In this document: piece by piece, positions 33,196-54,391 of the stretch
How positions within the stretch are numbered: the stretch's first letter is position 1
Layout: each line of letters begins with the position of its first letter
Virus record (IMG/VR): IMGVR_UViG_3300025131_000004
Strand: one strand, 5' to 3'
Length of the DNA stretch: 64,000 bases
From: a virus
Taxonomy: Duplodnaviria; Heunggongvirae; Uroviricota; Caudoviricetes
Made by a program: the position numbers and the translations under genes
The notes under the pieces: model-generated
The model's input: only the letters and a program-made list of their open reading frames with translations
Told to the model about the DNA's origin: nothing
Database searches by the model: none

Positions 33196-33229
33196 GACTT
33201 GATCCAAATTCGGGATGGGATTAAGATAG

Positions 33230-33265
33230 AGGCACTCGCGTTCATCGTGGGTGCCTTTATTTTTT
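33230..33265 (+). terminator. Rho-independent terminator after the tail tube gene
   Basis: AGGCACTCGCG-TTCAT-CGTGGGTGCCT stem followed by TTATTTTTT. Confidence 0.8.
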
Positions 33266-33274
33266 GGAGTACAC

Positions 33275-34051: not shown

Positions 34052-34932
34052 TGGCAGATAGAGCAAAGCCACCAGTCGGGACACCACAGGTAGTCTCTCC
34101 TGAAGCACCCCTAAAGAAGACGAGCGCAGAGAAGAAGCAGGACCAGCAGCTTGCTCTGCTTTCCCCAGCCAAGCGAGCGGAACTCATTTCTTCTGGTCAC
34201 ACCATTGAGCCACCATGGCCCAATAAGAAAGAGCAGTTCGACTACTACTGTGGTTCTCAGGCTTCTGTCTACTTCCAGGAGGTGCTCATTGATGAGTGCG
34301 CCTATGTCGGGTTCAACCGTAGCGCCGCAAAGATCCCAATCTATGGATACTCAGGAAGAAAGTACTGCACTGTGGCACAAGGACCCATCTCTGTAACAGG
34401 CTCCTTCGGCGTCAACTTCAAAGACGCAGGGTATCTGTTTGTCATTCAAGCCTACCTACAATCAAGACACGATAGAGCTACCGGTAGACCTGGTACTCTC
34501 AACGCAACAAAATCAAGAGACCTAGAAGCTAGAGCACAGACCATCGAGAACGTACTTCACGTACGAAGAAATCCACAGATTGGTCTACGTAACCCTGGCG
34601 ATCATACAGGACAGTCTTATATTAATAAGATCAATCAATTGGACGACCGAGAGTTCGAGCTCTTGGCGGAAGACTTTGAGAAGGTTGTGTGGGGAACGGG
34701 TGAGGGAAGCACCATCACTGCGAAACTTAGCGATGTTGCAAAGAAGACAGCGCCGGACGAGTTCCCTGCCTTTGACATTTTTCTTGTTTTCGGTAATCCT
34801 GATGATCCAGAAGCCAACTTTACAGTAAAGAGGATACAAGAGGTTGAGCTTACAGGAAGTAGAATGGAATATGGTATCGATGGTCAGCCGATCATAGAAC
34901 ATTACAGCTTTTTGGCCCGTGACGTGATCTAA
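34051..34932 (+). CDS. Third tail-tube-fold protein (baseplate-proximal)
   Basis: YYCGSQASVYF..KIPIYGYS..VTGSFGVNF..FDIFLVFG..IIEHYSFLARD. Confidence 0.6.
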   Translation: MADRAKPPVGTPQVVSPEAPLKKTSAEKKQDQQLALLSPAKRAELISSGHTIEPPWPNKKEQFDYYCGSQASVYFQEVLIDECAYVGFNRSAAKIPIYGYSGRKYCTVAQGPISVTGSFGVNFKDAGYLFVIQAYLQSRHDRATGRPGTLNATKSRDLEARAQTIENVLHVRRNPQIGLRNPGDHTGQSYINKINQLDDREFELLAEDFEKVVWGTGEGSTITAKLSDVAKKTAPDEFPAFDIFLVFGNPDDPEANFTVKRIQEVELTGSRMEYGIDGQPIIEHYSFLARDVI

Positions 34933-37391: not shown

Positions 37392-38006
37392 ATGGATGTC
37401 TTTCAGGCTAAGAAGGAACACAGGTCTTTATATGCAACAGACTTTCAATCAGGGACTGTGGTATGGAGACCTCTGAGCCAAAGAGAATATAGAGCATATA
37501 GAGATCTTGCTTGGCAATCCCCGGAGATGGTTCCTGAAATAGAGGAACAGATCTTTGAGGATTGTGTCCTTGACTCTTCTATACCAGATAGCACAGACCT
37601 TGGCGGCATCGTTACAACCGTCGCCTATCAGGTCATATCTGTATCGGGAGTGATCAATCCGATGCAGGCTCTGGGTCAACTCGCCACCTGGCGAGCAGAG
37701 ATCAATACACTTGATGAGCAGATGGTACTTCTTGTTTGCAAGGCATTCAGGTATACTCCAGAAGAGGTTGAGAAACTAGACTTCCAAGAGTTCCTGAGGC
37801 GTGTTGCCATGGCAGAGGTAATGCTAGGTGCTCTTATCCAAGTTGAAACCGAGGAGGCGCCAGTTGAACAAGGCGTGGACTTTGATAAGGATTCGAAAGA
37901 GCTGAACAAGTTCCGACAGAGAGAGGGCGACGGGTCCGCTCTTGAAGATCGGAAGTCTGCAGCTCTTGACCTTAGGAAGAAATTTCACGCACAACGAGGC
38001 GCTTAA
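37392..38006 (+). CDS. Second tail assembly chaperone (paralog-like)
   Basis: VVWRPLSQREY..IFEDCVL..GIVTTVAYQVISVSG resembles the upstream chaperone domain; precedes the TMP-like gene. Confidence 0.6.
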   Translation: MDVFQAKKEHRSLYATDFQSGTVVWRPLSQREYRAYRDLAWQSPEMVPEIEEQIFEDCVLDSSIPDSTDLGGIVTTVAYQVISVSGVINPMQALGQLATWRAEINTLDEQMVLLVCKAFRYTPEEVEKLDFQEFLRRVAMAEVMLGALIQVETEEAPVEQGVDFDKDSKELNKFRQREGDGSALEDRKSAALDLRKKFHAQRGA

Positions 38007-41000
38007 TGCTAAAGAGACCATTCGTCACAACAGAAGATAACTCCTTCGGCTATCGTTCCACCAACTGGGGTAGGGTCGCAGGCGCAGGTCTGTTTGGGGC
38101 AGGCGTCATAGGCGCTTCACGAATGGATATCTCCATGGACCCGACCAAGCTGTCCTATCTGCATGAGCCTCTTAGGGGTAGATATGTCGGCAAGGGAAAG
38201 GACGCACGTTACTTTCAACCACAAGACTGGTCGAAGATGGCAGGGCGGGCCCCAGGAAGGGTCAGGGGATCCGATGTCATGCTCAACGCTCTCAAGTGGA
38301 GCGAGGAGCAGCTATGGGGAATCCCAAGAACATTTGATCTCTACGCACTAGGCAGCACCCACCTTACAGGGCCCACTGGCAAAGAGGGAGTCCGTCTGGC
38401 TCTCGACCCCCACTATGTAAAAACATTCCAACCTTATCTTGAAAAGGAGATAGGCAAGAGAGTTGATGCAGCGGGCAAGGAGTTCTTCGGCCTTACCACA
38501 AATGAGCTCGCCTATGGGCTGGAGCTTAAAGAGTATAAGACTACAGGCATGTTCGGACAGGCAACCACAGAGGTTGGTCTGTTCGCCGCAAAGCCTGAGG
38601 TCACCGGCGCAAAGGAAGGTCCTATCATGGCACGCGCCAGAGCGATGTCAAGGTATTGGGCGCCTCCTGGCACAGACCCGATCACACATCACAGATCAAG
38701 ACTGGCAGCGACAAGACAAAGAATTCACGGTGTACGCAACGTACCCGCCGCACACGTAAGCAAGGGCCAAGCTCAACAGGGTGTGGTGCATGAGTCTCCT
38801 TGGTTGATCACAGGAGGAAAGAACAGAAGACAGGCATGGGGTCGCAACCTGCATGCCGTAGCCACTGAGCTTTCAAGTAGATACTTCCGCCTGTTGGACG
38901 ATCCGATTGAGGTCATTCATGACTTCATGAGAGGTTCACAGGGAACTATCAATGACCTCTTGCAAAGATCAAAGGACAGCACAAGCTATCAGATCTATGA
39001 GAAGACTTTAAAGAACAGATTTGGTGTAGGTGGGGCAGGAGCGATGGAAGGCGCTGGCCTTGGCCAGCTCTGGGGTCGACATGTGAAGAGAGCCGTTCCT
39101 CTTGTCGCCGGTCTCTACGGTGCCTATTACGGTGTCGGCATGTTCACCAACGCCTTGCTCAACAAGACACCTGGACAACTAGGTCACGCTGCTCATGCCA
39201 GTGCTCACATGATGTACGCCAGAGCTTCTGAGATCACAGGTCTGACAAGACTAGGTGAATGGCAGAGGGAGAAAGCTCCTGGCAGTACAAGCTATATGGG
39301 CTTGGCCGCATTCCCGATGTCGGCATATCTCACAGGAAGTATGCTCGGTTCAATCTATGACAGAGGTGTTGCAAAGGATTGGGCATGGAGATCTGTCCGC
39401 CAAAAGGAGCACTCTCTTCCTGGTTCACTTAGCAGACTTGTAGGTGGAAAGAAGGTCACAAGAGGAAGGCAGTGGGGAATCATGGCAGCGGTCGGAGCAG
39501 CGGCGATGGTCATGCCCTTCCTTCCAGGCGCACTGGGTTCCGAAAAGAGAGTAGATCAACTTCGAGCAGAGTACAGTGGCCAAAGAGAGGTCGCTATAAA
39601 GAAGGGTAGGTTCTGGGAGATGGGTAGGACCCCATACGAAGGAACCAATACGATGTATCACCGCCCGAATGCATATGCTCGTTCCATGATCGACGCTCGA
39701 GAGCACGGTATCTATGGAGACAACCTGGCCAACAGTCCTCTTTCCAAGCTGGCCAATCTCATTGCTGACCCATATTACCTTGAGAAGAAGCATTACCATG
39801 ACAGGCCTTACGCCATCACCGGTCCCGATGACGCCGGGTTTGGTCCTTTGGGCACAATCTATGCCGCAACATTGGGAAAGATCTTTAAGCCCCCTAGGCT
39901 CATGCACACGGACGAGTTGGCTCCAGGGGGGTACGAGGGCAAGGGAACCTTTGCAACGCCCTCAACGGGCGGCTCAGACCCCTCTATGGCCCTCGGTGGC
40001 ACAGGTGGTCCTGCTCCCGACTCTCCATACTCTCTAAGATCTCAGGCAGGAGAATTAGCTTATAGGATCCAAGAGGCCATTGGTCTGCCTGGATTCATGT
40101 TTGGAGCAGTGAAGAAAGAGTTCACTGGTAGTGCTGACATCTTTGATGAGAGGCCACTCTTACAGAGTGCTGCAGATATAACATCTGTAAGGAGGGAGTA
40201 CTGGGATCTGAACCTTGGTGGTGCAGGTACTGCCTCTGAAGCCTACCGTCGTTTCAATCCATCCAAACGTTTCCAGATAGAGGAGATGAACCCTCTTCCG
40301 AACACCATGCCTTCATGGATGCCAGGCTCTGGTCACTATATCAACTTCCAGACAGGTGATCCTTATACAAAGGTGCCAGAGGGTGAGCTAAGATTACCTG
40401 GCCCAGGCTTTGAGCATAGGTATGCTGAATTGAAGGGCACGGATATGGAAGATTATCCTCTGGCATACAAGTTCAAGATCCTTGCAGATGTCGCTCCTTA
40501 TAGCAAGGAGTTCAGAGACGTGAGGTCTAAGATCGGTGGGGCGATCGGCCGTGGTTCGCTTACAGAAGAACAAGAGCAGATGGTCGGTGAGACCCTTAGA
40601 CAGATCAGAGAGAAGGAGGAGGGTAGGCAGTTTACAGACAGAGAGGGTCAAGGCATCATGGGCAGTCTTTGGGGAGCGATGGTAAGAGTTGGCAGGGCCA
40701 ACCCCATGGAACAGATCATTCCCTTCTCTCCTGTTCACAAGTTTTCTGGCGGGACAGATGTCAATACTGCGTACGCTGGAGAGCGTGTATATAGTACAGA
40801 TTATCCCTCATGGTTCCGTCCTATAGAACACTTCATCAGTCCAGCGGTGCACTCAGCTGGAAGACTCTTTGGTATCAATGCCATCCCAGGAATGGAGCAG
40901 GAACGAAGAGATATTCAAAAGCACTTCGATATGCTTGAGTATGTAAAGCAGAGAAATCTTGAAGGACAGTTCAGACAGACAGGACAAGGAAGGGCTGCTG

Positions 41001-41767
41001 CTCACTCAGGTCGGCGTGCAGAGTCTACAAAGTTTGGAGCAGACCCATACGGAAAGAGATCGTCTGTTGAGAAGGTCTTGGATAAAAGAGACAGAGAATA
41101 TATCCGTGCCATGTTCGACCTGTCCACACCAAGAGAGCAGAAGAAGGCCATGTCTCTGGTAGACGAGCAGAGCAAGGGTATCCTTGAAGCTCAGTATCAG
41201 AAGCAGTTGATGGCCCAAATTGTTTCCCAACGAAACATCACAGATGGCCAGAAGGGCTTGATGGACCACATCGAGTTCATGAGATCGACAGAAGGAAGAG
41301 AGGCTACAGAGGAAAACTGGGACGAATATGAAAGAGCGAAGGCGGATGACCAGTGGGCAGGTAACCAGTTCTCTGACTTCCTGAGAATGAAAGAGGCTCA
41401 GAAGCACTTCTCGGAGAAGGGACTTCCTGGGGGTGACTGGGTAGGTTGGAGACCAGACGTAGATCTAGAGGACATAAAGCTGAAGTTTGTCATGGAGGAG
41501 GGAAAGGACTTTCACGACTTTGGTCTGTGGGAGACACAGGTAAGAGACCTGGCAAGGAAGCCTTACATAGATGATGCCGTGGATGAGATGAGAAATGCAG
41601 GATCCTCAGACGCAGAGGGTCAAATCTTTAAGATGCTCAGTGCTAGCGGACATGTTAATATTGATGTCAGTTCAAACCCTTCGCCATATGACAGAGCGAG
41701 TGTAAGCGTTGATCAAGACAATACGGAAGAGATTGAAAGGTATATGAACAGGATGGGTCTACTCTAA
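38006..41767 (+). CDS. Tape-measure-like / ejected tail-core protein
   Basis: 1253 aa right after the chaperones; Gly/Ala-rich helical stretches with hydrophobic segments (PLVAGLYGAYYGVGMF; GIMAAVGAAAMVMPFL). Confidence 0.5.
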   Translation: MLKRPFVTTEDNSFGYRSTNWGRVAGAGLFGAGVIGASRMDISMDPTKLSYLHEPLRGRYVGKGKDARYFQPQDWSKMAGRAPGRVRGSDVMLNALKWSEEQLWGIPRTFDLYALGSTHLTGPTGKEGVRLALDPHYVKTFQPYLEKEIGKRVDAAGKEFFGLTTNELAYGLELKEYKTTGMFGQATTEVGLFAAKPEVTGAKEGPIMARARAMSRYWAPPGTDPITHHRSRLAATRQRIHGVRNVPAAHVSKGQAQQGVVHESPWLITGGKNRRQAWGRNLHAVATELSSRYFRLLDDPIEVIHDFMRGSQGTINDLLQRSKDSTSYQIYEKTLKNRFGVGGAGAMEGAGLGQLWGRHVKRAVPLVAGLYGAYYGVGMFTNALLNKTPGQLGHAAHASAHMMYARASEITGLTRLGEWQREKAPGSTSYMGLAAFPMSAYLTGSMLGSIYDRGVAKDWAWRSVRQKEHSLPGSLSRLVGGKKVTRGRQWGIMAAVGAAAMVMPFLPGALGSEKRVDQLRAEYSGQREVAIKKGRFWEMGRTPYEGTNTMYHRPNAYARSMIDAREHGIYGDNLANSPLSKLANLIADPYYLEKKHYHDRPYAITGPDDAGFGPLGTIYAATLGKIFKPPRLMHTDELAPGGYEGKGTFATPSTGGSDPSMALGGTGGPAPDSPYSLRSQAGELAYRIQEAIGLPGFMFGAVKKEFTGSADIFDERPLLQSAADITSVRREYWDLNLGGAGTASEAYRRFNPSKRFQIEEMNPLPNTMPSWMPGSGHYINFQTGDPYTKVPEGELRLPGPGFEHRYAELKGTDMEDYPLAYKFKILADVAPYSKEFRDVRSKIGGAIGRGSLTEEQEQMVGETLRQIREKEEGRQFTDREGQGIMGSLWGAMVRVGRANPMEQIIPFSPVHKFSGGTDVNTAYAGERVYSTDYPSWFRPIEHFISPAVHSAGRLFGINAIPGMEQERRDIQKHFDMLEYVKQRNLEGQFRQTGQGRAAAHSGRRAESTKFGADPYGKRSSVEKVLDKRDREYIRAMFDLSTPREQKKAMSLVDEQSKGILEAQYQKQLMAQIVSQRNITDGQKGLMDHIEFMRSTEGREATEENWDEYERAKADDQWAGNQFSDFLRMKEAQKHFSEKGLPGGDWVGWRPDVDLEDIKLKFVMEEGKDFHDFGLWETQVRDLARKPYIDDAVDEMRNAGSSDAEGQIFKMLSASGHVNIDVSSNPSPYDRASVSVDQDNTEEIERYMNRMGLL

Positions 41768-44700
41768 ATGAAATACGATACACAACGAGACTTTGTCTCT
41801 GACTATCTGGCTCCTGGCATGGCGCTGTCTGGCTTTGGTTACATGGGCTATGCCGGGTTCAGTACGATGGATTACAATGCTTTCGCTGCTCCATGGAGAA
41901 AGGCGAAAGATACCATGAGTCTTTTTGGTGGACTTTCCGCATTTCACAGACGACGTCCTGGTCCCGTCATGGGAGCAAGCGAAGCTGCGGTTCTAGCGGG
42001 GGAACTTTTTGCACCGAGCGGTGCCAAGATCTCGGAGCGGTGGTGGACCGGCAGGTCGCGCGCTCGCGCTGCCTGGTCTCTCGCCTCTCGTAAGTTCGGT
42101 GGTGCGACAGACATAGGAAAGTTTGAAGACGTCAAGTCCTTGGGTAAGTATTTAGAAAGCAGACCTGAGTTCTCGGGCACAGTCTCCTCATACATGAATC
42201 GCCTGACAGCCTCAGGAGCGACACTTGAATCGAACAAGGGCATAGCTCAGATTCCTGGTCTTCATAAGTCAAGCGCAGCAAAATGGACACGTATCAACAA
42301 AGGAAAGAAGATCACGGCAGACGTATTGGCCAAGCAAGGTCTTTCTGGAAGAGCAGATTTGGCTACAGCTATCAACGCTTTGGCAGAGACCATGGGAAAG
42401 GGAACAACGGTTTCTCTTGGCAAGCACGCCCAACACAACATGGCCTCATCCATTCGATTCAGAACCAACAAGTCTTTGATCGAACTTCCTCTTACAGTAT
42501 TCATGGGAGGCAGCGACAAAGGGGCTACCATGTTCTTGGGCAAGCATGGCAGCCAGGTTGTCACTCCAAGGATGGTTCAGAGAGCAGGGGAGGTAATGCC
42601 ATTCCTAGCAACAATCAAGGACAGCATGAAACCGATTCCTCTTACTCCTCCACCTGGCATGACAAAGCATTTGGATGTCTACATGATGGAAAAGATGAGA
42701 GAGGAGTATGGGCGCTTGCAGGGTGGTACAAGCAGGCAGAACTATCATAGCGCAGAGGCTCTAAAGAGAGAGATCTTGAACGAAGTGATCTTCGAGTCCA
42801 ATGACCTTGGTAACAGAACCGTCGATGACCTTGCTCATGGGTTCCGAGGACACAGGGTTCGAAGTGAGGTCAAGGTGGTAGAGACCGGCCTGTTGGCGGA
42901 GAGGGGTCTCGAATGGAACCAGAGAGCCTATGTTGAAGGCTTCTCCAGATGGGGCAAGGATGTCATCTCGTCTCCTCAGGCGATTGAGAAGAACGTCTTC
43001 CTCAATCCAGATGCCAACTGGAACAGGTTTTCGTTCACGGGTGCGTATTCTCAAGCACGACCAGACCAGCTCGCAAGAGAGCTTAGGCTTAGGAAAGGGC
43101 CAGCAGGTTTGAATCTATCTGCTTACGCTTCCTCTATTGGAAGAGCGGCGATCGGCCAGGAGCTGAAAGACCCAGAGATGGCCTTGAGAGTCGTGTCTGT
43201 ATCCCAAGACGCTTGGGGTCATATCGCGGGGATGGAGGGACTTGGCTCTGATGTCTCAAGGATTGGGGCCGAGGAGTTCTTGGGTTCCAATAGAATGAGA
43301 AGTGCTGAGTTTGAGAAGGCATTCTCTCACTCTATTGACCTCACTCATCCACAGGTCGGTGAAAAGACATCAAGGATAATGGCAATGATGCGAACAGATG
43401 CCGAGTTGTCACAGGCTGTCGCAAACAATACTTTGTGGGAGTATATCAAGCAGGCTCCGAACGAGGCTCAGCTTACTGACATGTTTACACTCCGCCAGGG
43501 AGAGCTTCTTGGCTTCTCTTCAGGATCAGAGTTTATCGAAGGCTCTAGATACGGTGGAGTGCAACGAGTGGAGAACGTCAAGTTCGTACAGGGGACACTG
43601 CCTTCTGGTGAGGTAGGCCCTGTGTCGTTGCAGCTTGGTGGAAGTGAGATTCACAATGTAGATGTTGGAATGAAGTTCCAAGGAACCAAGTACTCGAAGA
43701 AGACCGTCAAGGGATTCATGAGGCACAGGGAGTTCCAGAGGAGATCTGCCATGGCGCTCGCTCTTTCAGAAGCGATGGCGACATCACAGATCAGACAAGG
43801 CAACGAGGCGGTCATCTCTATTCAGGGCATGTCCAACAAGTTGTTCAAGCGGAGACTCACTGGTGGGTATACCTTCAGAAGCCGGACGCAGGGTCGTGAG
43901 TACATGAGAAGAGTCGCTGGTTCAAGCTTCCTTACCACAGAGGGCGCAAAGGCTATCGGAGGAGCGAACTTCGACGAGTGGTCGTTTGCTCTTGGTAACG
44001 AGATCAGCATGCGTATGCAGCAAGGCCCGCAGGGCCAGATGACAAAGACTCAGTGGCAGAGCGCAATGGCATTGGCTGAGGAGACTCTCTACGGAAAGCG
44101 CATGGGAGATCCCCTCTTTACAAAGACTGACAAGTACGGTGTCGCTGGGCAGATGATTCGAAACGAGGGATCAGATCCAATCAAGGTACGAAATGCGCTC
44201 CTTCGTGCAGGCACAGATTTGGGGATCATCGATGCACGACAGGCTGGAACAACACTTGATGCTTTGATGAGCACGAATGCGAATGTTTCATCTCGCGCAT
44301 GGGAGGGCATGGGAAAGAGATACGGTGAGGTTGGTGTATGGAATGTTCAGGCTGCAGCGCAGGGTACTCCCGAGATGCTTGGTGCGTTTACTCGAGGCTC
44401 AGCAGATGAGAGAGTGATCAATGCGTTCAGGATGCAAGGAATGGGCGAGGTTGCAGAGTCTATCCTTGAGGGCACAAGCGGGAAGGCAGAGAGCCTTGCA
44501 GACAACATGAAGATCATGTCCATGTCTGGAACGCAGCGCCCAGACAATGTCGTTCATGTTGATGAGCTTACCGGCTCTGTTCGTGAGAGGTTCTTCTCAG
44601 CAGATCCCTCTGTGAGACGCGGAGCTCTAGAACAACTTGGCGTGGCAGGAGAAGAGTTCGCCATCGATCTTGGTTCCACGTTCGAGGTTCCTACAGGAGT

Positions 44701-46663
44701 AGGAGACAAGACTCGAGGTGTTCGTTACCTCAGGCCTGGCATGCATCAGTCAGGTCATGTCGGAGCCTATGCCACAGACGCAGAGAAGACAGTGCTAAAG
44801 AGCATGGATGCTTCTTTGAATAGGGTCTTGAGCGGTGCCGCCGGACTTGGGCCTGACCCAGGTGATTATGCAGAGGGCGTTGCTCAAGACCTAGGTGAAT
44901 ACTTTGGCTCTGTCAGAGATGCGACGATGGGAAAGAGGATGGCAGGTAAGCATGCCTTCGCAGGTCCTCTGGAGAACTCTGTTCAGCTTCAGCTTCAGTC
45001 TAGCCTTGAGGGAATCGCAGGGGGCGACTTAAGAGGTTTCGTTCCTGGGACCGGACCTGTCGAGAACGTTCCAATCGGAAAGAAGAGTATGCCAAATGCG
45101 TTCGTTCTAAAGAACGAGACCGCTCATAAGTTCTTCAACCTGTCGAAAGAAGAGAGTGCAGCCTTCAAGAAGGGAGGAAGCGCAGGCAGAGTTCTTAAAG
45201 GACATATCTACGGGACGATACATCGTCAACCTATCGAAGGCCTGTATCGTGCAGCGGTGACCAGGTTCGCCAGCGCCGAAAGGATCATGGATGACCACTC
45301 TGTATCCACAGAGGTCAGGAACAGCGCGAGCAGAGTCAGCAGAGCACAGGTCTTTGCAGACGAGCACTTCCTTGCTGCTCTTGGTGGCGACTTCGATGCT
45401 GACCAGGTCTATCTTCATGCGCTCGATCCAAATAAGAAGAAGGCCTATGCGCTCGCCCACTCTGTTACAGAAGGGTCTATCGCAGCAAGGACATCTACGG
45501 TTGAAGAGGTAGGCAGCCTTGTACAGACCACATTGGCTGAGCACGGCTTCACGGATGCACCAACGATCCGTCGCGCAACGAACATGTCCATAGCTCAACA
45601 TGAATATCAAAAGACTCAAATGACAATTCAAGAGTCTCTGAAGAAGAGCTCCAAGGCCGTGTATAATACTGCCGAGGTATTCACACCCGGCTCTTCCGGA
45701 TTCCAAAAGAGAATGGCGGCTCGCTATACAGAGGCCTTCCTTGAGAAGCAGATGGTAGGTAACATCTCCAATGTATCCAACATCGCTCTCAGAGCATATG
45801 CAGGAGAGACGACAAGCCCTAAGAACATCAGGAAGGCAGGCTCTCTTCTTCACAACCTGACAGAGCGTATCATCAAGGCAAAGTACGTTGGAGACAAAGA
45901 GATTGCAAGCGGCGCAAAGTCTGCCTCAAGAGCAGTGGATATCTTAAGAAGAGGAGACGTGGGAAGATTACAAGAGTTCAAGGACATCGTTACGAACCTG
46001 ATGCCCTCAGACGGAACACCAACAGGAGACAAGGCCTTGGAGGACATGTTGTCTGTTGCTGATGATATACTTGCTGCCACCAGTCGATTCCAGGTAGACA
46101 ATCCAGAGCTCAGAACAATGAAGCTGTTCTCAAAGAAGAACGCTTCCGTAGAGGACCTCTTCAAGTTGTCGGATGAGCTGAGAAGGACTGGTAACATGCA
46201 CCCTGCCGCTCAGTACATTCAAGAGGCTGCGGGGGGCAAGGTCAAGAGTGGATTGGCCATGGCAGCAAGAAGTGTCAAGACAAACCTTGGCCAGTTGGTC
46301 AGTCACTTCAAACCCCATGCGAAGTGGGGGGCGATCGGGATAGGTGCAGGTCTTGTTACAAGCATGGCACTTGGCGACCCAGGACACTTGAATGCCAGGA
46401 TGGATTCTCAGGACGAGGCAAGAAGAATGACCTCACCGACAGGAGGGCAACCAAGCACTCCTGCGCCAGGGCCTCAGACTGCCAGAGTTACACCGGGAAG
46501 AGAAGTTCAGGTCAATGCTGTTGCTCAAAAGAGACTTGCCAATTACAATGTAGGTCGTAACCTTGGCGCCCTTCTTGGCCCAGGCACATCAACAAACGTT
46601 ACAATGAATGATCACAGGTCACACGTAGATGAGGATTACATCATGAAGAGAATGGGGATTTAA
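41768..46663 (+). CDS. Putative single-chain two-barrel (beta/beta'-like) virion RNA polymerase
   Basis: Beta-like: GAEEFLGSNR, LRQGELLG, VGMKFQGTKYSKKTV (K636/K644), EAVISIQGMSNKL. Beta'-like: GSVRDATMGKR, VLKNETAHKFF, HRQP, AALGGDFDADQVYLH (D1208/D1210/D1212). All are collinear with RpoB-RpoC. Confidence 0.78.
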   Translation: MKYDTQRDFVSDYLAPGMALSGFGYMGYAGFSTMDYNAFAAPWRKAKDTMSLFGGLSAFHRRRPGPVMGASEAAVLAGELFAPSGAKISERWWTGRSRARAAWSLASRKFGGATDIGKFEDVKSLGKYLESRPEFSGTVSSYMNRLTASGATLESNKGIAQIPGLHKSSAAKWTRINKGKKITADVLAKQGLSGRADLATAINALAETMGKGTTVSLGKHAQHNMASSIRFRTNKSLIELPLTVFMGGSDKGATMFLGKHGSQVVTPRMVQRAGEVMPFLATIKDSMKPIPLTPPPGMTKHLDVYMMEKMREEYGRLQGGTSRQNYHSAEALKREILNEVIFESNDLGNRTVDDLAHGFRGHRVRSEVKVVETGLLAERGLEWNQRAYVEGFSRWGKDVISSPQAIEKNVFLNPDANWNRFSFTGAYSQARPDQLARELRLRKGPAGLNLSAYASSIGRAAIGQELKDPEMALRVVSVSQDAWGHIAGMEGLGSDVSRIGAEEFLGSNRMRSAEFEKAFSHSIDLTHPQVGEKTSRIMAMMRTDAELSQAVANNTLWEYIKQAPNEAQLTDMFTLRQGELLGFSSGSEFIEGSRYGGVQRVENVKFVQGTLPSGEVGPVSLQLGGSEIHNVDVGMKFQGTKYSKKTVKGFMRHREFQRRSAMALALSEAMATSQIRQGNEAVISIQGMSNKLFKRRLTGGYTFRSRTQGREYMRRVAGSSFLTTEGAKAIGGANFDEWSFALGNEISMRMQQGPQGQMTKTQWQSAMALAEETLYGKRMGDPLFTKTDKYGVAGQMIRNEGSDPIKVRNALLRAGTDLGIIDARQAGTTLDALMSTNANVSSRAWEGMGKRYGEVGVWNVQAAAQGTPEMLGAFTRGSADERVINAFRMQGMGEVAESILEGTSGKAESLADNMKIMSMSGTQRPDNVVHVDELTGSVRERFFSADPSVRRGALEQLGVAGEEFAIDLGSTFEVPTGVGDKTRGVRYLRPGMHQSGHVGAYATDAEKTVLKSMDASLNRVLSGAAGLGPDPGDYAEGVAQDLGEYFGSVRDATMGKRMAGKHAFAGPLENSVQLQLQSSLEGIAGGDLRGFVPGTGPVENVPIGKKSMPNAFVLKNETAHKFFNLSKEESAAFKKGGSAGRVLKGHIYGTIHRQPIEGLYRAAVTRFASAERIMDDHSVSTEVRNSASRVSRAQVFADEHFLAALGGDFDADQVYLHALDPNKKKAYALAHSVTEGSIAARTSTVEEVGSLVQTTLAEHGFTDAPTIRRATNMSIAQHEYQKTQMTIQESLKKSSKAVYNTAEVFTPGSSGFQKRMAARYTEAFLEKQMVGNISNVSNIALRAYAGETTSPKNIRKAGSLLHNLTERIIKAKYVGDKEIASGAKSASRAVDILRRGDVGRLQEFKDIVTNLMPSDGTPTGDKALEDMLSVADDILAATSRFQVDNPELRTMKLFSKKNASVEDLFKLSDELRRTGNMHPAAQYIQEAAGGKVKSGLAMAARSVKTNLGQLVSHFKPHAKWGAIGIGAGLVTSMALGDPGHLNARMDSQDEARRMTSPTGGQPSTPAPGPQTARVTPGREVQVNAVAQKRLANYNVGRNLGALLGPGTSTNVTMNDHRSHVDEDYIMKRMGI

Positions 46664-46666
46664 TTA

Positions 46667-49600
46667 ATGGCTTTTAGAGATGGCGTACCTGGAGACAAGA
46701 CCTTTGGACAGATTGAAGTAATCGATCTGAACGCTCCTCCTGACTACAGTGTTTCCAGCGTTGAGTTTGACGACTCTGAGGTTGAGGACTTCAATGCTCC
46801 CAGTACGGCCGCTGCAACAGGACGATTAGACAGAAAGCTTGTAGATCATCCATACAATACAGGAAAAGATGGCGTAGGAGCGACTCTTGGCGAAGGTCAC
46901 TTTCGAATCAATGACCTTATCTTCTTCTGTCCTCCGACAGCAATTAGCATTGAGGGTCACGATGTAAACTATAAGTGGGACACACTTAGAACAAACACCT
47001 CCATGAAAGCCAGGTCTGGTCGTGGCACGCTTTCATTCACAGTAAACCTTGTCATAACACAAGACACTCTTCGAGGGTTCTCTCTCTCAGAGGTCATCAA
47101 TCGTAGCTTCCTCCCTCTCATTCAAGAGTTCAAAAAGACCCCTTTCTGTGAGGTTGAGAACGAGCTGCTTAGAAGATCTCTTCCTGTAGATGACGGCGAG
47201 CCTATCGGCGCTGCGCTTGTAGGGATCAATGTGACGACTATGCAGGGACTGCCAGGAACACTGAACGTTCTGCTCCGCTTCCTCTGGTTCAACTACAAAC
47301 CATTTACTCCAAACTTCAAGTACAGAACATCCTGGACAAACCAAGGGGTGGACAGAGAGAGGGCAATCTATAAGGCAAAGGGGGATCTTGGTTATAGAAC
47401 ATTGAAGGGCTCTCCGGGACGTATCTACAACTCGACAGCCGAGTACCCAACCACAAGATTCAATCGCTCCGGCGCGGCAATGTTGCATTTTCGTGAAGAT
47501 CTCATGCGTGTCAGATCCTATGAGAGAGACGATATCGATATCATCAAGGAGCCAACTCGCAGAACCATGGACTTCGGAGCGGATACGGCCTTCTCCTTTT
47601 GGGAAGTCAACGTACCCACCACACCACCTCCATCTGCATTCAGATTCATCAAGGAGTTTACGAACTACGAGTTCAGTCATCCATCGAAAGAGTCTACATA
47701 TAAGAGTGGAGGGAACTCAAAGGTCAATGCCTTGAGAGCACAGGAATCAAGAGAGGGCAATCTTCATAGGTTCAAGTCTAAAGGAAGATGGAGAAAGGCT
47801 TCCATGGGAACTTTTACTTCGTTTGAACGAATGCGTGCCGCATGTAACCAAGAGATAGGAGAGGATATCTGGGTAGCCTCCGCATGGAGGTCTCAGTCGT
47901 CACAGACTTATCTTTGGAAGAAGTCCCTGGCAGACCATGATGGCAACTGGAGGAAGGCAAGGAAGTGGGTTGCTCCACCTCGTGGTCTTGAGATGCCTGA
48001 TGGATCAATCGCTCCAGGCTCCAAGCACCAAGACGCTACCGCGCTTGATCTAAAGTGGACCAACATGTCCTTTGTTGAGAACAAGGCAGGAAGAAGAAAG
48101 TACCTGTCAAGACATAATGTCGGTCAGCTTAGAGGAGACAGGGTATATGGCTGGTTAAAGAGGAATGCTGATAGGTTCTCGTTCGTTCCATATGATGCAG
48201 AGCCTTGGCACTGGAACTACGCAGGGCCAGAAGAGGCGTCCTTGTCAGCAGAGCTGAACACAAGTGGAGAGGTGAAGGAGAAGGCGCCTCCTGCAATCTA
48301 TAAAGATATCATTGAGGTGGCCGATGGTAATAACATTCCAAGGTCTCTCGCTCTTGCTCTGGTAAGTGTAGAGTCGAATTTCAATCCAGACAAGATTGGA
48401 GACGAGGGACAGGCTGGCTTGGTACAGCTTTCCCCAAGCGCCCTCTTGTCCCTCGGACTGGGTGCACAGGAAGACGTGCTTGATCCTCGAATCAATCTGG
48501 AAGCGGCTTTCTCGTATCTGGCTGACCTCTCTGCCAGGTATGGCAACTGGACAAACGCTCTTCAGGCGTATCACGTCGGAGCAGACGAATACGACTTGAA
48601 TCCGACAAGGATACCTGACAGTGTCAATAAGAGAATCGCTGATGTGGTCGCCCGTGTAAGAAGTGATTTCAAGGACCCTGCCCTTGCAGACTCCATAGTG
48701 CGTGGGGACAGGGCTGGAGAGCTAACACCCAAGAGACCTGACAGGTTTAGAGAGACAACAACTCCCAATATCGAGAAGAAGATTTTTCTTAGAGAGAGAG
48801 CTGTCCTGTTGGCAAGGCTCACAGACGAAGCGAAGCGTGTGGGTTCTGCTCATGATATGGCAAGTGTAAAGACTTTGACAGAGGCTCACGGCTGGCTTGG
48901 TAAAGTGGTGACTGGCCTGACAGAGGAAGACAAGATCGCACTTGGTCTTTGGGCTCACGCAAACTCTGAATATGATTTCTTTTCTCTTGAAAATCTGACA
49001 CCCAATAAGAGCGGGGGGCTTGTGTTAAGCAAGTCCAGAAACCAAATCAATGCAGAGATCGAGCGAAGAATTAGCGGAATAGAGCTCTCTCTCAATCGTT
49101 CATGGATAGAGAAGAACGGATCAGAAACTGAAGGCTGGCATCTTATAGAGGATCAGATCACGAAGAAAAGAGTCTTTAAGAGAAGGAACTCTTTTTACAT
49201 TGGAGAAAGCAAGGAGAGTGTGTGTATCACATTCATGAACTTTGGATTCATGCACAAGATCGTAGCTCTTCCTGTTCTGGGATGGAGATATCCTACGCTT
49301 CAATATATGGGAAGTGTCAGTCCAAGAGTTACCATGGCAATCGCCTTCATCGGAGAAGAAGGCAGAGAGGAGTTGAAGAATCTTCTGGACATGATTCAGA
49401 AGCAGGCGGATTACGCAATCAACTTGAGAGAGCTGCATAAGACCCTTGGGATCATAGTGGATAACAGTCTGTTGAATGCTGTTGGCATAAAGCAGCTCCT
49501 TCTTGAAGACTGGAAGATCGAGACATCTCCTTCTGAGAAAGACACGGTAATGATGACTCTTGATTTTGTGGACAACAGCATAAAGAAGAGCGATGAGTTC

Positions 49601-52600
49601 TCTGTGCCTCTGATTAAAGGAGTAAGCGAGGTCGCCAACGGCTTGATTCGTCTTATCTTGAAAAGAGGAAACGTATCAGCGATAAGAAAAGATGGAAACT
49701 TCAGAGAAAGAACTCCGATTACGGAAGACGAGGTCAGGAGCACTGCGCAGGCGACAGCGGTCGCATTTGGATTGCGAGCAAAGACAGTTGATGACGGAAG
49801 AGGAGGAGTCACCACAGTTCACACAGAAGAGTCCCTTGACAAGATTCATTTTGAAGCTACCGGCTCTACGGGAGATGAAAGGATGGATGCTGTTATCGGT
49901 CCTATGCTCCAGTTGTTCAACATGTTTGGTGAAGAGATCGAGGATTACCCAGAGACATATCGCTTGGGCGACTACTTTATAGACCATCTGACAACCACAG
50001 ACTTTCAACTGAAAGGCTGGCCAACCACTCCAAAGCAAAAGAATCAGCTTATCTATCGCGGAAAGAGCGGACAGTTTGATCTTTTTACAAGAAAGATGGA
50101 GGTTTTTATTCATCACATCTTAATGCCCAACCTTCAGTTATCAAAGGACAGAGAGGTTAACAAAATTCTACAGAAGCTGAATGTCAGCGGTGTTGTGGGA
50201 GCCAAGCCTTGCTATCCTGATCTTGACCTGCCTCCAAATCCCATCACCGGACAGATTGTAGATATGAATCCAGACTTCTATTTTTATAATGCATCCGATG
50301 TCATACATGGAAATCCGACAGAGAAGAGGTCTCACTCCTCGGAGAAGTATGACACCTATAGAAAGAGAGGGCTTAAGGCTTTGAGAAACAGCTTCAACCA
50401 CTTCTTGGTTGAGCAGGCAGGGAATGCAAGTGAGACGCTGACAAGAGATCCGGAGATTCATCCAGAGAGATCTGCCGGGGGAGATGGTAAGGTTGATGGT
50501 GTGCAGGTATATGACCCACTGACTGGAAACAATGCAGGAGCGACCTCTCTTGCGCTCACAGAGATGAAGACTTCCAATCAGACGAGGTCGGGCCCAAAGC
50601 CTAACGCTCAAAACTGGGACGAGGCAGTTGATGAAGAGTTTGCAAAGAGCGGAGGATCATACTCTCTTTATGACGAGGTCCCCAAGGGCACTTTTCTTCC
50701 AGAGGGAAGGGACCTGCTTGAGCAAGACATGACCCTTGAGGGCTCTACCAGAATTTTTGAACGATACATGAAGAACGACTTTCTTGAAGAGAAGCTGACG
50801 ATGCGTAGGGCGTACCCTACATTCAAGGTGTTCTTCATCGAAGAGGATCAGCCAGGCAAGCCGTGGAAGGTCTTTGATGATTTCTATGGAATCAACTCTG
50901 TCAGCGAGATTCGTATTGTCAGGTCTCGCAAGATCGCCGCAGACCTTTGTCTTATTCAGGTTACGAATGTTGCTGGAACTCTTACGAACCGTCAGTTCCC
51001 AGAGTTTAGGGGTGCTGTTCTACATGAACTTGGCTTGTCAGACAATGGCAATCACCAATCTCTTACCTCAAAGAGGGCGAAAGAAAAGATTCATGATCAG
51101 GACAAGACAAAAGAAAACCCATTTCACTCTACCCTTCTAAAAGAAGGAACAAAGGTTCAGGTTAGACTTGGGTACTCCAACAACTTTGATGAGTTGGAAA
51201 CAGTTTTCAATGGACAGATTGTAGGGGTCGAGGGAAATGAACTTCTTACACTGATATGTCAGTCGTATGCTACAGAGCTTGTCGCCATACAGAGGGGTGA
51301 GGATCCAAAGCAGAAGTTTGGTTGGTTCAACTCTGACACAGATGAGTTGCTGAGCCTTCTTATCGCATCTCCGGAATGTAAACACTTTGGCAGATGGAAG
51401 ATCAAGGACATAGGCATAGGCCCCAGACACCTGCAGTTACATCCTGACGGTGGTGGACATAAGAGGTGGGGCTTTGTCGATACTCCCGCCGACGACAATA
51501 TCTATCCTGAGCCATTCGATGACATGGTCTTGGACTGGGACAACTTCTGGACTGAGTACGTCGTATATCACACAACCATCTGGGATGTCTTCAAGGAGAT
51601 GGAGCTACGCCATCCTGGGTGGATCGCATCACCTGTACCCTATGATGACCGCATGACCATGTTCTTTGGCCTACCCTCAATGCAGTATTTTTATAGAGAC
51701 CCAAAGTCTTTGGAAGAGAGAAAGAGGTACTCGCTATTCAAAAACAATATCCTTCAAGAGGTGATCAAGACTCTAGACTTGGGTGCGTATGGAAGTGTCC
51801 CCTCAACCTATTGGAGCGCCTCTGCTCTTGGAACAGTCAACCACTTACCATCATTGCTGAATAAAAACTTTGGCACTGTCGCGAGTGGAAGCTATTCACC
51901 GAAAGCCATCCTGCAGTTCATGGACATAGTCAATGAGAACACAGAGATGTACAGCTCTCTGATGAAGAGAGATGAATCTCAGGCCTTCGCAGAAAGGGCG
52001 TTGCTGACACAGTCAAAGGACGTTGCCGCTTTTGTACAGTTGGCAGATGATCCGGAGAAGAGAAGAGTTCTAGAAGAGGCATTGAACAGGTTGGGAGAAG
52101 GAAATATCACTGCAGCAGACGTCTTGCTTGGAGATATGATCAGGTCATTCCGGTCGTATCATATGGTGACATCAGAACATGACATCATTCATAATGATAT
52201 CAAGGCAGATCACAGAGGAACGTTTAACAGCGTTTCCGTAGACTGGTCCTCAAGCCCTTCTGGAGGAGACTCTGGAGTTGCAGGAAGACCAGATGGTGGC
52301 ACAGAGACCATTGCAATTGATGACCACATTCGTAAGGACCATCTTCGTCATACATATATTGCAGAGCCAAACTGTGAGGGTAGATTTCTTGCTGTCAGAT
52401 ATGGCATTGGACATCTGATGAGGTCTCTCAAGGACACCTATAAGGGAACCTTGACCATCATCGGGAATCCAAAGATGAAGCCTCATGACATTGTCCATCT
52501 CCTGGACAGCTACACAGACATGGCTGGGCCTTTTGAGATTGAACAGGTTGTTCACACATTATCCTCCAGCACAGGATTTATCACTGAGATAACTCCTGAT

Positions 52601-53143
52601 CTCTGTGTCAACGCACGCAGGGGAGCGATGCTTAGTGTTGCAGACGCGATGGGCCAGGTCAGTGTAAGAGCTCATCAGTCACTGGTTGAGTTGATGGGAG
52701 GAAAGCAGTCAAAGACTCCTGTGGCACATGCACATGCGGCGGGCGCAGCGGCTGCTGCGGGCGCGGCTGCGGCAGGGGCTGCGGGCGCGGCTGCTGCGGG
52801 CGCGGCTGCTGCGGGCGCCGCCGTAGCCAAGGGGGCAGGAACGATTGCAGCAGTAGCTGCTGGCTGGTTCCCTGCTGTTGTCATTGGATCTTCGCTCTTG
52901 ATCCTTGCAGCAGGCGGGTATAAATTTGCCAAGTATGCTACAACAAGAGAGCCAGTGATCATTACACCCTTGACCAGAGCAGGCAAACCATTTGTCTCTG
53001 GGTTCGATGGGTTTGAATCAGATGGGCTGTTTACGTCTATTGGCGGTCAGTGGAGACACTTCGCACACAGCTTCAAGGACGGGATAAATGTTATGGGAAT
53101 GTATTATGATGCCATAACAGCAAGCTATTGGAATGGAACATAA
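46667..53143 (+). CDS. Giant baseplate hub / tail-associated lysin: M15 (VanY-like) Zn peptidase + soluble lytic transglycosylase + gp27-like hub
   Basis: SAWRS..GSKHQDATALD..EPWHW; VSVESNFNP..GLVQL..DPRINLE..AYHVG; EGTKVQVRLGY..VFNGQI; GTLTIIGNPKMKPHD..FEIEQVVH. Confidence 0.85.
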   Translation: MAFRDGVPGDKTFGQIEVIDLNAPPDYSVSSVEFDDSEVEDFNAPSTAAATGRLDRKLVDHPYNTGKDGVGATLGEGHFRINDLIFFCPPTAISIEGHDVNYKWDTLRTNTSMKARSGRGTLSFTVNLVITQDTLRGFSLSEVINRSFLPLIQEFKKTPFCEVENELLRRSLPVDDGEPIGAALVGINVTTMQGLPGTLNVLLRFLWFNYKPFTPNFKYRTSWTNQGVDRERAIYKAKGDLGYRTLKGSPGRIYNSTAEYPTTRFNRSGAAMLHFREDLMRVRSYERDDIDIIKEPTRRTMDFGADTAFSFWEVNVPTTPPPSAFRFIKEFTNYEFSHPSKESTYKSGGNSKVNALRAQESREGNLHRFKSKGRWRKASMGTFTSFERMRAACNQEIGEDIWVASAWRSQSSQTYLWKKSLADHDGNWRKARKWVAPPRGLEMPDGSIAPGSKHQDATALDLKWTNMSFVENKAGRRKYLSRHNVGQLRGDRVYGWLKRNADRFSFVPYDAEPWHWNYAGPEEASLSAELNTSGEVKEKAPPAIYKDIIEVADGNNIPRSLALALVSVESNFNPDKIGDEGQAGLVQLSPSALLSLGLGAQEDVLDPRINLEAAFSYLADLSARYGNWTNALQAYHVGADEYDLNPTRIPDSVNKRIADVVARVRSDFKDPALADSIVRGDRAGELTPKRPDRFRETTTPNIEKKIFLRERAVLLARLTDEAKRVGSAHDMASVKTLTEAHGWLGKVVTGLTEEDKIALGLWAHANSEYDFFSLENLTPNKSGGLVLSKSRNQINAEIERRISGIELSLNRSWIEKNGSETEGWHLIEDQITKKRVFKRRNSFYIGESKESVCITFMNFGFMHKIVALPVLGWRYPTLQYMGSVSPRVTMAIAFIGEEGREELKNLLDMIQKQADYAINLRELHKTLGIIVDNSLLNAVGIKQLLLEDWKIETSPSEKDTVMMTLDFVDNSIKKSDEFSVPLIKGVSEVANGLIRLILKRGNVSAIRKDGNFRERTPITEDEVRSTAQATAVAFGLRAKTVDDGRGGVTTVHTEESLDKIHFEATGSTGDERMDAVIGPMLQLFNMFGEEIEDYPETYRLGDYFIDHLTTTDFQLKGWPTTPKQKNQLIYRGKSGQFDLFTRKMEVFIHHILMPNLQLSKDREVNKILQKLNVSGVVGAKPCYPDLDLPPNPITGQIVDMNPDFYFYNASDVIHGNPTEKRSHSSEKYDTYRKRGLKALRNSFNHFLVEQAGNASETLTRDPEIHPERSAGGDGKVDGVQVYDPLTGNNAGATSLALTEMKTSNQTRSGPKPNAQNWDEAVDEEFAKSGGSYSLYDEVPKGTFLPEGRDLLEQDMTLEGSTRIFERYMKNDFLEEKLTMRRAYPTFKVFFIEEDQPGKPWKVFDDFYGINSVSEIRIVRSRKIAADLCLIQVTNVAGTLTNRQFPEFRGAVLHELGLSDNGNHQSLTSKRAKEKIHDQDKTKENPFHSTLLKEGTKVQVRLGYSNNFDELETVFNGQIVGVEGNELLTLICQSYATELVAIQRGEDPKQKFGWFNSDTDELLSLLIASPECKHFGRWKIKDIGIGPRHLQLHPDGGGHKRWGFVDTPADDNIYPEPFDDMVLDWDNFWTEYVVYHTTIWDVFKEMELRHPGWIASPVPYDDRMTMFFGLPSMQYFYRDPKSLEERKRYSLFKNNILQEVIKTLDLGAYGSVPSTYWSASALGTVNHLPSLLNKNFGTVASGSYSPKAILQFMDIVNENTEMYSSLMKRDESQAFAERALLTQSKDVAAFVQLADDPEKRRVLEEALNRLGEGNITAADVLLGDMIRSFRSYHMVTSEHDIIHNDIKADHRGTFNSVSVDWSSSPSGGDSGVAGRPDGGTETIAIDDHIRKDHLRHTYIAEPNCEGRFLAVRYGIGHLMRSLKDTYKGTLTIIGNPKMKPHDIVHLLDSYTDMAGPFEIEQVVHTLSSSTGFITEITPDLCVNARRGAMLSVADAMGQVSVRAHQSLVELMGGKQSKTPVAHAHAAGAAAAAGAAAAGAAGAAAAGAAAAGAAVAKGAGTIAAVAAGWFPAVVIGSSLLILAAGGYKFAKYATTREPVIITPLTRAGKPFVSGFDGFESDGLFTSIGGQWRHFAHSFKDGINVMGMYYDAITASYWNGT
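52736..52822 (+). repeat. GC-rich imperfect tandem repeat (15-nt unit GCGGGCGCGGCTGCT) encoding (AGAAA)n
   Basis: Read directly from the sequence; strong local GC spike. Confidence 0.85.
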
Positions 53144-53604: not shown

Positions 53605-53954
53605 TGGGCAAGGCATTAACTTCGCAGGATATTCCTGCCAACATTTGGAGGAAGAGTCCCAAGTCATCTGCAGCGATCAAGCTGTCAGAAACTTCTGTCG
53701 CCATGATTGGAGGGCCGGACCACGCTCTGGTAACAGATGAGCACTTCGGAAACATTATCAAAGGTCCTGTAAGTATGACGGCGACGCCGCAACAGATCAG
53801 GATTAGTGGGTTCTGGACACTGAATCCCTTTTTGACAAGCATGATCCCCTCAACTATTATTACTCCAATGCCTACGCTGATTTTCAATCCTCCATTGGGA
53901 GGGATCGAGGCTTTGAGGCAGGCTGTCAGGGACCTGACAAGCTTGATTGTTTAA
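53604..53954 (+). CDS. Small baseplate/spike-region protein
   Basis: Lies between the hub-distal gene and the gp25-like gene; TAATG coupled. Confidence 0.5.
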   Translation: MGKALTSQDIPANIWRKSPKSSAAIKLSETSVAMIGGPDHALVTDEHFGNIIKGPVSMTATPQQIRISGFWTLNPFLTSMIPSTIITPMPTLIFNPPLGGIEALRQAVRDLTSLIV

Positions 53955-54382: not shown

Positions 54383-54391
54383 GGAGATAAG

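Follow-up and report, generated by a model that had tools for sequence, protein, structure and literature searches.

RNA polymerases (RNAPs) of the two-barrel kind that a phage injects into its host have been established in the crAss-like podoviruses, in the phiKZ-type jumbo phages, where they are multisubunit enzymes packed in the head, and in one siphovirus group, that of P23-45. In this last phage, the giant protein gp96, in which the RNAP is fused to the tape measure, is injected and transcribes the earliest genes (Chaban et al. 2024, PMC10770324). In the contractile-tailed Bacillus jumbo phage 0305phi8-36, gp146, with gp145 on one side and the gp27-like hub gp147 on the other, is annotated as a “hypothetical tape measure protein”, an assignment based mainly on a tail-length correlation (PMC2147016); gp146 was detected in the virions by mass spectrometry, and the corresponding gp095 of Bacillus phage WH1 is annotated as a virion structural protein. 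Here we describe P0001, the positional counterpart of gp146 in an uncultivated member of the Caudoviricetes (IMG/VR virus record IMGVR_UViG_3300025131_000004), encoded between the gp145-like P0006 and a gp27-like lytic hub in the 64-kb stretch of DNA that we analysed and call the window, out of a record of 81.7 kb estimated to be 41% complete. Judging from its sequence, P0001 is probably a very diverged tail-delivered two-barrel RNAP, closest in kind to P23-45 gp96.

The initial annotation of this open reading frame (ORF) had matched eight short strings in it to motifs of the E. coli β (RpoB) and β′ (RpoC) subunits. The frame (41768-46663, + strand) is open for 1631 codons, all eight strings lie where they had been placed, and the E. 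coli motifs had been quoted correctly, as seen after fetching and translating rpoB (NFEDSILVSER and GDKMAGRHGNKG) and rpoC (LLNRAPTLH...AAYNADFDGDQMAVH). In P0001, GAEEFLGSNR corresponds to residues 500-509, VGMKFQGTKYSKKTV to 633-647, EAVISIQGMSNKL to 680-692, GSVRDATMGKR to 1047-1057, VLKNETAHKFF to 1113-1123, HRQP to 1152-1155, and DFDAD to 1208-1212. The gene and its elements are as follows, with lengths in amino acids (aa):

41768..46663, + strand: P0001, giant tail-module protein with an RNAP-like core, 1631 aa; open frame, four-member family, conserved synteny.
43271..43276, + strand: E502-E503, candidate counterpart of the β acidic residue (E. coli β E813/D814); invariant in 4 of 4 homologues.
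43673..43702, + strand: K636...K645 (GMKFQGTKYSKKT), candidate basic pair of the β-like barrel; K636, K645, and T646 invariant.
45221..45232, + strand: H-R1153-Q-P1155, putative counterpart of β′ NRAP / Rpb1 NRQP; R, Q, and P invariant.
45389..45403, + strand: D1208-F-D1210-A-D1212, putative catalytic triad for Mg binding; D[FMY]DAD in all four homologues.
45728..45772, + strand: TEAFLEKQMVGNISN (residues 1321-1335), conserved post-catalytic block; seventh most conserved window.
46256..46660, + strand: C-terminal module, residues 1497-1631; aligned by hhalign to WH1-type C-termini.

According to the layout that we propose, residues 1 to about 480 would form a domain, followed by a β-like half at about 480-760 with E502/E503, K636, and K645, and by a β′-like half at about 1040-1260 with R1153-x-P1155 and D1208-x-D1210-x-D1212; after about 1260, there would be a helical stretch, one transmembrane-like segment, and the C-terminal module common to the related proteins. 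This module is made of a transmembrane-like hydrophobic segment (about 1518-1538), a Pro-rich linker, a TARVTP strand, and a terminal motif.

The P0001 family is tiny, with four members among about 15 billion proteins. HMMER, run exhaustively over 1.84 billion cluster representatives, found only P0001's own cluster, P0003 (1674 aa), P0004 (1648 aa), and P0005 (1649 aa), with pairwise identities to P0001 of 43%, 35%, and 24%, respectively. Word-based searches gained no further members, scans of IMG/VR, metagenomes, and genomes returned known members only, and P0001 itself had no match by tblastn in 50,697 phage records, nor in Pfam, PHROG, or the PDB sequences. Across the four homologues (24-43% identity), 151 of the 1631 columns are invariant, and these include E502, E503, K636, K645, T646, R1153, Q1154, P1155, D1208, D1210, A1211, and D1212, with DFDAD varying only as D[FMY]DAD. 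When all windows of 15 residues were ranked by conservation, the R-Q-P block IYGTIHRQPIEGLYR came first and the DFDAD block DEHFLAALGGDFDAD fourth, with the K636 block thirteenth; the β′-type half of the observed motifs is therefore strongly constrained and the β-type half moderately so, and the conserved catalytic-type residues do run in the order β then β′, as had been claimed. The further claim that three Asp and two Lys would be conserved among homologues held for D1208, D1210, D1212, and K636 and failed for K644, which is H in P0005; the invariant partner of K636 is K645, at a spacing of 9 residues and not 8.

We suggest keeping in mind that the core pattern in a single sequence is weak evidence, because [RK]xP-x(20-100)-DxDxD arises in 3.9% of shuffled P0001 sequences (and DxDxD alone in 12.8%), even if, among the window ORFs of at least 150 aa, the RxP...DxDxD pattern occurs in P0001 only; as we read the sequences, its significance comes from conservation and not from one protein. 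Chaban et al. filtered for an R-x-P located 20-100 residues before DxDxD (Suppl. Data 4, PMC10770324), and P0001 has R1153-Q-P1155 55 residues before its DxDxD. It also has candidates, in the right order, for the residue set called invariant in all two-barrel RNAPs (PMC2919709). The Ala at the fourth position of DxDxD is of no concern, because the survey table of catalytic-loop variants lists DDDKD, DNDKD, DVDID, and DQDPD, with DDDKD/DNDKD among the variants of the phiKZ/AR9-type non-virion RNAPs (PMC10770324), and because the non-virion RNAP of AR9, which that table gives as DDDKD, is active (PMC5449584).

P0006 and the hub, P0007, are clearly homologous to proteins of the 0305phi8-36 group of jumbo myoviruses, i.e., the Bacillus phages 0305phi8-36, WH1, Edson, and KLEB27-3, the Acinetobacter phage ME3, and the Moorella phage MTATph1, and the order of the sheath, tube, chaperonin, gp145-like, slot protein, and hub genes is shared with 0305phi8-36, ME3, WH1, KLEB27-3, and MTATph1 and is likewise kept in a metagenomic relative, L001; by these genes, the source phage is distantly related to the 0305phi8-36/ME3 jumbo myoviruses. 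The initial annotation had put P0001 between a tape-measure-like gene and the hub as a free-standing gene. Instead, P0001 sits in the tape-measure slot itself, and the supposed tape-measure gene, P0006, is by homology a gp145-like virion protein without a proven ruler role. P0001 is also nearer to the P23-45 fusion than to a free-standing enzyme, because it lies in the gp146 slot and ends in the transmembrane segment and C-terminal module common to the slot proteins. On the other hand, the expectation that automated labels would miss such a polymerase was borne out, given that the counterparts are called “hypothetical tape measure”, “virion structural”, or “hypothetical”. P0001 has no Pfam or PHROG tape-measure match, and its helices are predicted with moderate confidence at residues about 1224-1344 only (AlphaFold2, predicted local distance difference test, pLDDT, 47).

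The slot proteins of the cultured relatives carry a DxDxD signature about 390-520 residues from their C-terminus. ME3 gp036 (1603 aa) has SREPAQG and then, 43 residues on, GGDHDQDQ, at 1217; WH1 gp095 (2515 aa) has NRYPTINKQT and, 38 residues on, KADHDGD, at 1996; and KLEB27-3 gp034 has KADYDGD at 1933. The R-to-D spacing is thus 55 in P0001, 35 in RpoC, 38 in WH1, 43 in ME3, and 43 in an SPbeta-type YonO homologue. The WH1-type proteins (n = 13, metagenomic homologues included), down to 20% identity, keep three blocks, SAKMDMSGRFRIQGV, GLYGxxNRYPTI, and ADxDGD, where R-x-P and DxDGD are strictly invariant and SAKMDMSGRF stays conserved across all 13; we take SAKMDMSGRFRIQGV to be comparable to the β′ motif GKRVDYSGRSVI. 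The Pfam family RNA_pol_Rpb1_2 (PF00623), i.e., the β′ catalytic barrel, matches two WH1-type proteins, with E 7.3e-5 and E 0.04, the best match reaching 23.5 bits, under the curated cut-off of 25.3. In a six-frame search of the whole WH1 and KLEB27-3 genomes, PF00623 matched only inside the slot gene (E 5e-4 and 7e-5), and both the R-x-P and DxDGD motifs of the WH1 type fall within the match; this β′ similarity of the WH1-type slot proteins is observed directly.

The same WH1-type proteins (WH1 gp095, L007:15235-22782, and 12 metagenomic ones) also have, at the N-terminus and upstream of the RNAP-like core, a DEDDh exonuclease signature that is invariant (D110, E112, N276, D281, H360, and D365, with a weak Pfam RNase_T match), and P0001 and ME3 gp036 are without it. 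In MTATph1, the slot protein (L006:15390-22746) has only 1309 aa and no DxDxD, and this slot gene may be disrupted, because a transposase gene and several small ORFs stand between it and the hub gene.

By BLAST or HMMER, P0001 has no similarity to the slot proteins of the relatives over the catalytic core. With hhalign, the C-terminal module of the P0001 family matches the WH1 type over 124 columns at E 3e-5 (E 0.0036 with a two-sequence WH1-type profile), and this match spans the hydrophobic segment, the Pro-rich linker, TARVTP, and the terminal motif. The second-best match of the same comparison pairs IYGTIHRQP with LYGFTNRYP, GGDFDAD with KADHDGD, and EKQMVGNISN with GKADIGVLDN (E 0.12), and two more weak matches are collinear with it. 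In a sliding-window control, the β′ region of P0001 scored best against the WH1 windows that hold the catalytic site (top of 45, P 0.007; 26.7 vs. a median of 15.6), and no such signal was found for the β-like region against the WH1 type. When the three subfamilies were aligned blind with MAFFT, the only residues that stayed invariant were G1066, R1153, P1155, D1208, D1210, and D1212. HRQP of P0001 aligns with REP of ME3 gp036 and NRYP of the WH1 type (blind MAFFT; hhalign), DFDAD with DHDQD of ME3 and D[HYFN]DGD of the WH1 type, and TEAFLEKQMVGNISN with ARTGKxxIGxxDN of the WH1 type (hhalign, MAFFT). P0001 is thus tied to the WH1 type by synteny, by the C-terminal module, and by an alignment of the catalytic motifs that is in register but non-significant. 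The most economical reading is that the slot protein of this phage lineage would hold a single-chain two-barrel RNAP core, with P0001 and ME3 gp036 as its most diverged, exonuclease-free forms.

Several results weigh against this reading, and we bring them together here. The P0001 family profile found no match among all PDB chains up to E 10, and searches with this family alone match no polymerase in Pfam, PHROG, or the PDB. Its direct similarity to solved RNAPs is confined to the 15-residue catalytic loop, where 8 of 15 residues of the DFDAD loop are identical to E. coli β′ AAYNADFDGDQMAVH. By Smith-Waterman alignment, the K636 region has no significant similarity to RpoB (p 0.71). The AlphaFold2 models came out with pLDDT 40 for residues 400-1330 (four sequences) and with pLDDT 47 for residues 1040-1345 (mixed eight-sequence alignment), where the catalytic part is under 50. 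The link between P0001 and the WH1 type over the catalytic region is, taken alone, the non-significant one already given, and the alignment of the β half to the relatives is method-dependent: L-INS-i pairs K636/K645 with the invariant K1395/R1403 of the WH1 type, and E-INS-i does not. The acidic candidate in the β-like half is Glu and not Asp. Of the eight parallels drawn in the initial annotation, three fail among the homologues, namely K644, the EAVISIQGMSNKL motif, and K1056/R1057 (the K-R of GSVRDATMGKR), and by this comparison these three are probably accidental. Finally, the slot protein of 0305phi8-36 exists without a DxDxD site.

The β′ region of the family alone returned only chance AcrIIC4 matches and no polymerase from the PDB; PF00623, PF00562, and PF05183 had no match in a six-frame search of the window's own record; segment 1140-1225 of P0001 matches elsewhere in RpoC equally well by chance (Smith-Waterman); and against four YonO-like sequences hhalign aligned a 21-residue catalytic loop only (E 0.4). 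E502/E503 lie 133 residues ahead of K636, and their alignment to the relatives is not robust, so that the pair is an inferred candidate for the β acidic residue. In favour of the polymerase reading, a mixed three-subfamily profile had as its top match among all PDB chains the β′ subunit gp55 of the phiKZ non-virion RNAP (7ogp_A), in register on both motifs, with a non-significant E of 0.16. Likewise in favour, a language-model feature search with residues 1040-1260 placed a phage PF05183 (YonO-like RNAP) cluster second, at 0.83, a lead only, and gave nothing usable with the whole core or the β-like part.

Given these results, the resemblance could be coincidental, with an acidic loop, conserved in some unrelated fold, happening to follow an R-x-P. 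The pattern does turn up in about 4% of shuffled sequences, no significant profile match joins the P0001 family to any RNAP, and neither AlphaFold model (pLDDT 40 and 47) produced barrels. We nevertheless hold coincidence to be very improbable, since the syntenic proteins of ME3, WH1, and KLEB27-3 have both motifs in the same relative position, and in the WH1 type both fall within the PF00623 match. That the core of P0001 derives from an RNAP of some kind is, in our judgment, likely.

An RNAP-derived core may also be a relic. P0001 would then be mainly a structural tail-lumen or tape-measure protein, with its RNAP-derived segment left over or put to a non-polymerase use, possibly metal-dependent binding of the DNA ends or of the hub, and the phage would use the host polymerase or another one encoded in the unsequenced 59% of its genome. 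The record is only 41% complete; the transmembrane segment and C-terminal module of the slot proteins are present in P0001; the region past the catalytic loop is predicted, with moderate confidence, to be helical; and the 0305phi8-36 counterpart, assigned as the tape measure from the tail-length correlation (PMC2147016), lacks DxDxD. In contrast, in a relic R-x-P and the three Asp would not have stayed invariant across the three subfamilies, nor in the most conserved blocks at 24-43% identity, and 0305phi8-36, the one relative without the motif, is also alone in having a separate YonO-like polymerase, gp99. Among these phages, gp99 (PF05183, E 1e-20) is found only in 0305phi8-36, and the jumbo-phage survey credits that phage with the YonO-like enzyme only (PMC7824862); the aligned place in its gp146 reads AYEDYD. 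WH1, KLEB27-3, and ME3 keep DxDxD in the slot protein; in these three phages, neither a gp99 homologue nor any other polymerase from the families searched for was detected. That 0305phi8-36 lost DxDxD yet has gp99 fits a replacement of function rather than its absence, and the complementary distribution, in a small sample, fits one function served by either the slot protein or gp99. We thus regard the relic as rather unlikely and moderately favour, from these comparisons, P0001 as an active tail-delivered polymerase.

An active two-barrel core might, however, have a main job other than early mRNA, e.g., making replication primers, copying an RNA template, or pulling in the genome as a motor. 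The two-barrel superfamily takes in RNA-dependent polymerases and the DNA polymerase PolD (PMC7824862; PMC2919709), the weak feature-search lead points to PF05183 (RdRP/YonO), and the WH1-type relatives add a DEDDh exonuclease, unusual for a transcriptase. P0001, for its part, is without the exonuclease domain, P23-45 gp96 is reported as a DNA-dependent transcriptase of early genes (PMC10770324), and the phi14:2 gp66 and phiKZ/AR9 virion RNAPs are likewise reported as DNA-dependent early-gene transcriptases. Most likely, then, such another main job is not what P0001 serves; we find it improbable, though a little less so than coincidence, and keep early transcription as the preferred role.

The window as a whole is a structural module with terminase, portal, capsid, sheath, tube, three giant genes (P0006, 1253 aa; P0001; and P0007, 2158 aa), and baseplate wedge, which agrees with the initial annotation in placing P0001 in the tail module of a contractile-tailed phage. 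Its relevant features are:

29168..32503, + strand: tail sheath, 1111 aa; PHROG 16991 at 2e-71, weak Pfam sheath domains.
32518..34932, + strand: three tail-tube paralogues; PHROG 9206, corresponding to the 0305phi8-36 gp140/141 tube proteins.
34969-35730 and 36732-37388: homing-endonuclease-type genes (HNH/EndoVII-like; GIY-YIG-like), among the tube-paralogue and chaperonin genes.
38006..41767, + strand: P0006, 1253 aa, homologue of 0305phi8-36 gp145 and ME3 gp035; by tblastn.
46667..53143, + strand: P0007, baseplate hub with VanY and SLT, 2158 aa, homologue of 0305phi8-36 gp147; by Pfam, PHROG, and tblastn.
53954..55606, + strand: baseplate wedge genes (gp25/W-like and gp6/J-like); PHROGs 25235/120 and PHROG 6.

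By tblastn, P0006 matches the virion structural protein gp035 of ME3 at E 3e-60 and 0305phi8-36 gp145 at 7e-25. Its first 520 residues have several transmembrane-like hydrophobic segments, and its C-terminal 770 residues are conserved and common to ME3 gp035 (E 3e-60); P0006 may be a membrane-inserting partner of P0001. The P0006 stop codon TAA immediately adjoins the P0001 ATG in the junction sequence, and therefore translational coupling of the two genes is likely. A readthrough fusion of both as a conserved feature was rejected, since the two genes differ in frame in L001 and ME3. The terminal peptides of P0006 and P0001 are similar (YMNRMGLL and YIMKRMGI; in L001, LKRMGLIN and YILRRLGV), and a shared homologous C-terminal anchor is unsupported by BLAST or hhalign. 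P0007 joins a VanY-type peptidase (Pfam, 1.3e-8), an SLT transglycosylase (3.9e-16), and a gp27/hub-like region (PHROG 20474 at 4e-72) with an Ala/Gly-rich hydrophobic end; tblastn matches it to the hubs of WH1, ME3, and 0305phi8-36, and it is, by its domains, a cell-wall-cutting tail tip like 0305phi8-36 gp147. Both homing-endonuclease-type genes are absent at the syntenic locus of L001, judged from gene count and size.

The two-barrel fold, the activity, the presence in the virion, and the injection of P0001 are what we infer from the analysis as a whole. In the mechanism that we propose, P0001 would be built into the tail lumen via its C-terminal module, with the gp145-like protein as its neighbour and the lytic hub below it; contraction of the sheath would expel it; its hydrophobic segment would hold it at the membrane; and there it would transcribe the first phage genes from the incoming DNA without the host polymerase, as for P23-45 gp96. 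Whether the whole contractile-tailed jumbo lineage (0305phi8-36, WH1, KLEB27-3, ME3, and the uncultivated clade) injects its slot protein as a two-barrel RNAP is, to us, evenly balanced. If it does, the P0001/ME3 type would be a new exonuclease-free single-chain RNAP family in which the catalytic residues alone survive, and a contractile tail tube would house a polymerase of about 180 kDa and then shoot it into the cell. We found no publication that names the slot proteins as polymerases, be it the 0305phi8-36 comparison (PMC2147016), the two-barrel review (PMC2919709), the jumbo-phage survey (PMC7824862), the P23-45 paper and its survey table (PMC10770324), the 2026 jumbo-phage review, or the ME3 genome announcement.

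If P0001 is active, the tape-measure-linked strategy would extend to jumbo phages with contractile tails that infect Bacillus, Acinetobacter, and uncultivated hosts, the first transcription enzyme of such phages would have been hidden behind “tape measure” or “virion structural protein” labels, and a start of infection independent of the host polymerase would be accounted for. It would also branch very deeply within the tree of two-barrel polymerases, as a new addition to it, and pose the mechanical question of how a large enzyme is stored in the tail lumen and refolded after ejection. Since ME3, WH1, and KLEB27-3 are cultured, the idea is directly testable.

Compared with the known systems, P23-45 gp96 resembles P0001 in being a giant protein of the tape-measure locus that has transmembrane segments and an R-x-P...DxDxD site and whose sequence is hardly similar to cellular RNAPs beyond the catalytic loop. 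In contrast, gp96 belongs to a siphovirus and has 5002 residues, an N-terminal RNAP, DFDGD, and a demonstrated activity, whereas P0001 belongs to a contractile tail and has 1631 residues, a catalytic loop three quarters along the chain, DFDAD, and a predicted activity. The P0001 family profile found no similarity to gp96 among all PDB chains, and the likeness is thus of the works-like kind only.

Within its own lineage, P0001 shares its genomic slot and the R-x-P...DxDxD signature with WH1 gp095, the Edson protein, and KLEB27-3 gp034 (about 2400-2550 aa) and with ME3 gp036 (1603 aa). The WH1 type also has the C-terminal module (hhalign E 3e-5), a homology that is observed directly, and differs from P0001 by its canonical DxDGD, its SAKMDMSGRF (GKRVDYSGR-like), its sub-threshold PF00623 match, and its N-terminal DEDDh exonuclease. 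ME3 gp036 is closest in build, with a near-equal length and E507, R1174-E-P, D1217, and a transmembrane segment near 1480, vs. 503, 1153, 1208, and 1518 in P0001. The gp146 of 0305phi8-36 has the same position, between gp145 and gp147, and a faint C-terminal similarity; unlike P0001, it has 2537 aa and no DxDxD, in a phage with the separate YonO-like gp99.

The single chain with the β-like barrel first that we propose for P0001 is also that of phi14:2 gp66 and of the YonO-type RNAPs (SPbeta YonO and 0305phi8-36 gp99; PF05183). The crAss-like enzymes also have a non-Gly residue at the fourth motif position (DFDxD), and YonO homologues have R-x-P about 43 residues before DxDGD. Unlike P0001, phi14:2 gp66 is carried in a podovirus particle, and YonO and gp99 are non-virion enzymes. 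The jumbo myoviruses of the phiKZ/AR9 type also inject a two-barrel RNAP of their own, as proposed for P0001; their virion RNAPs have four or five subunits, are packed in the head, and are clearly related to bacterial β/β′, whereas P0001 is a single chain encoded in the tail module. In summary, the kind of polymerase proposed here is already known from P23-45, and what is new is its contractile-tail, stand-alone-sized, exonuclease-free, and extremely diverged form.

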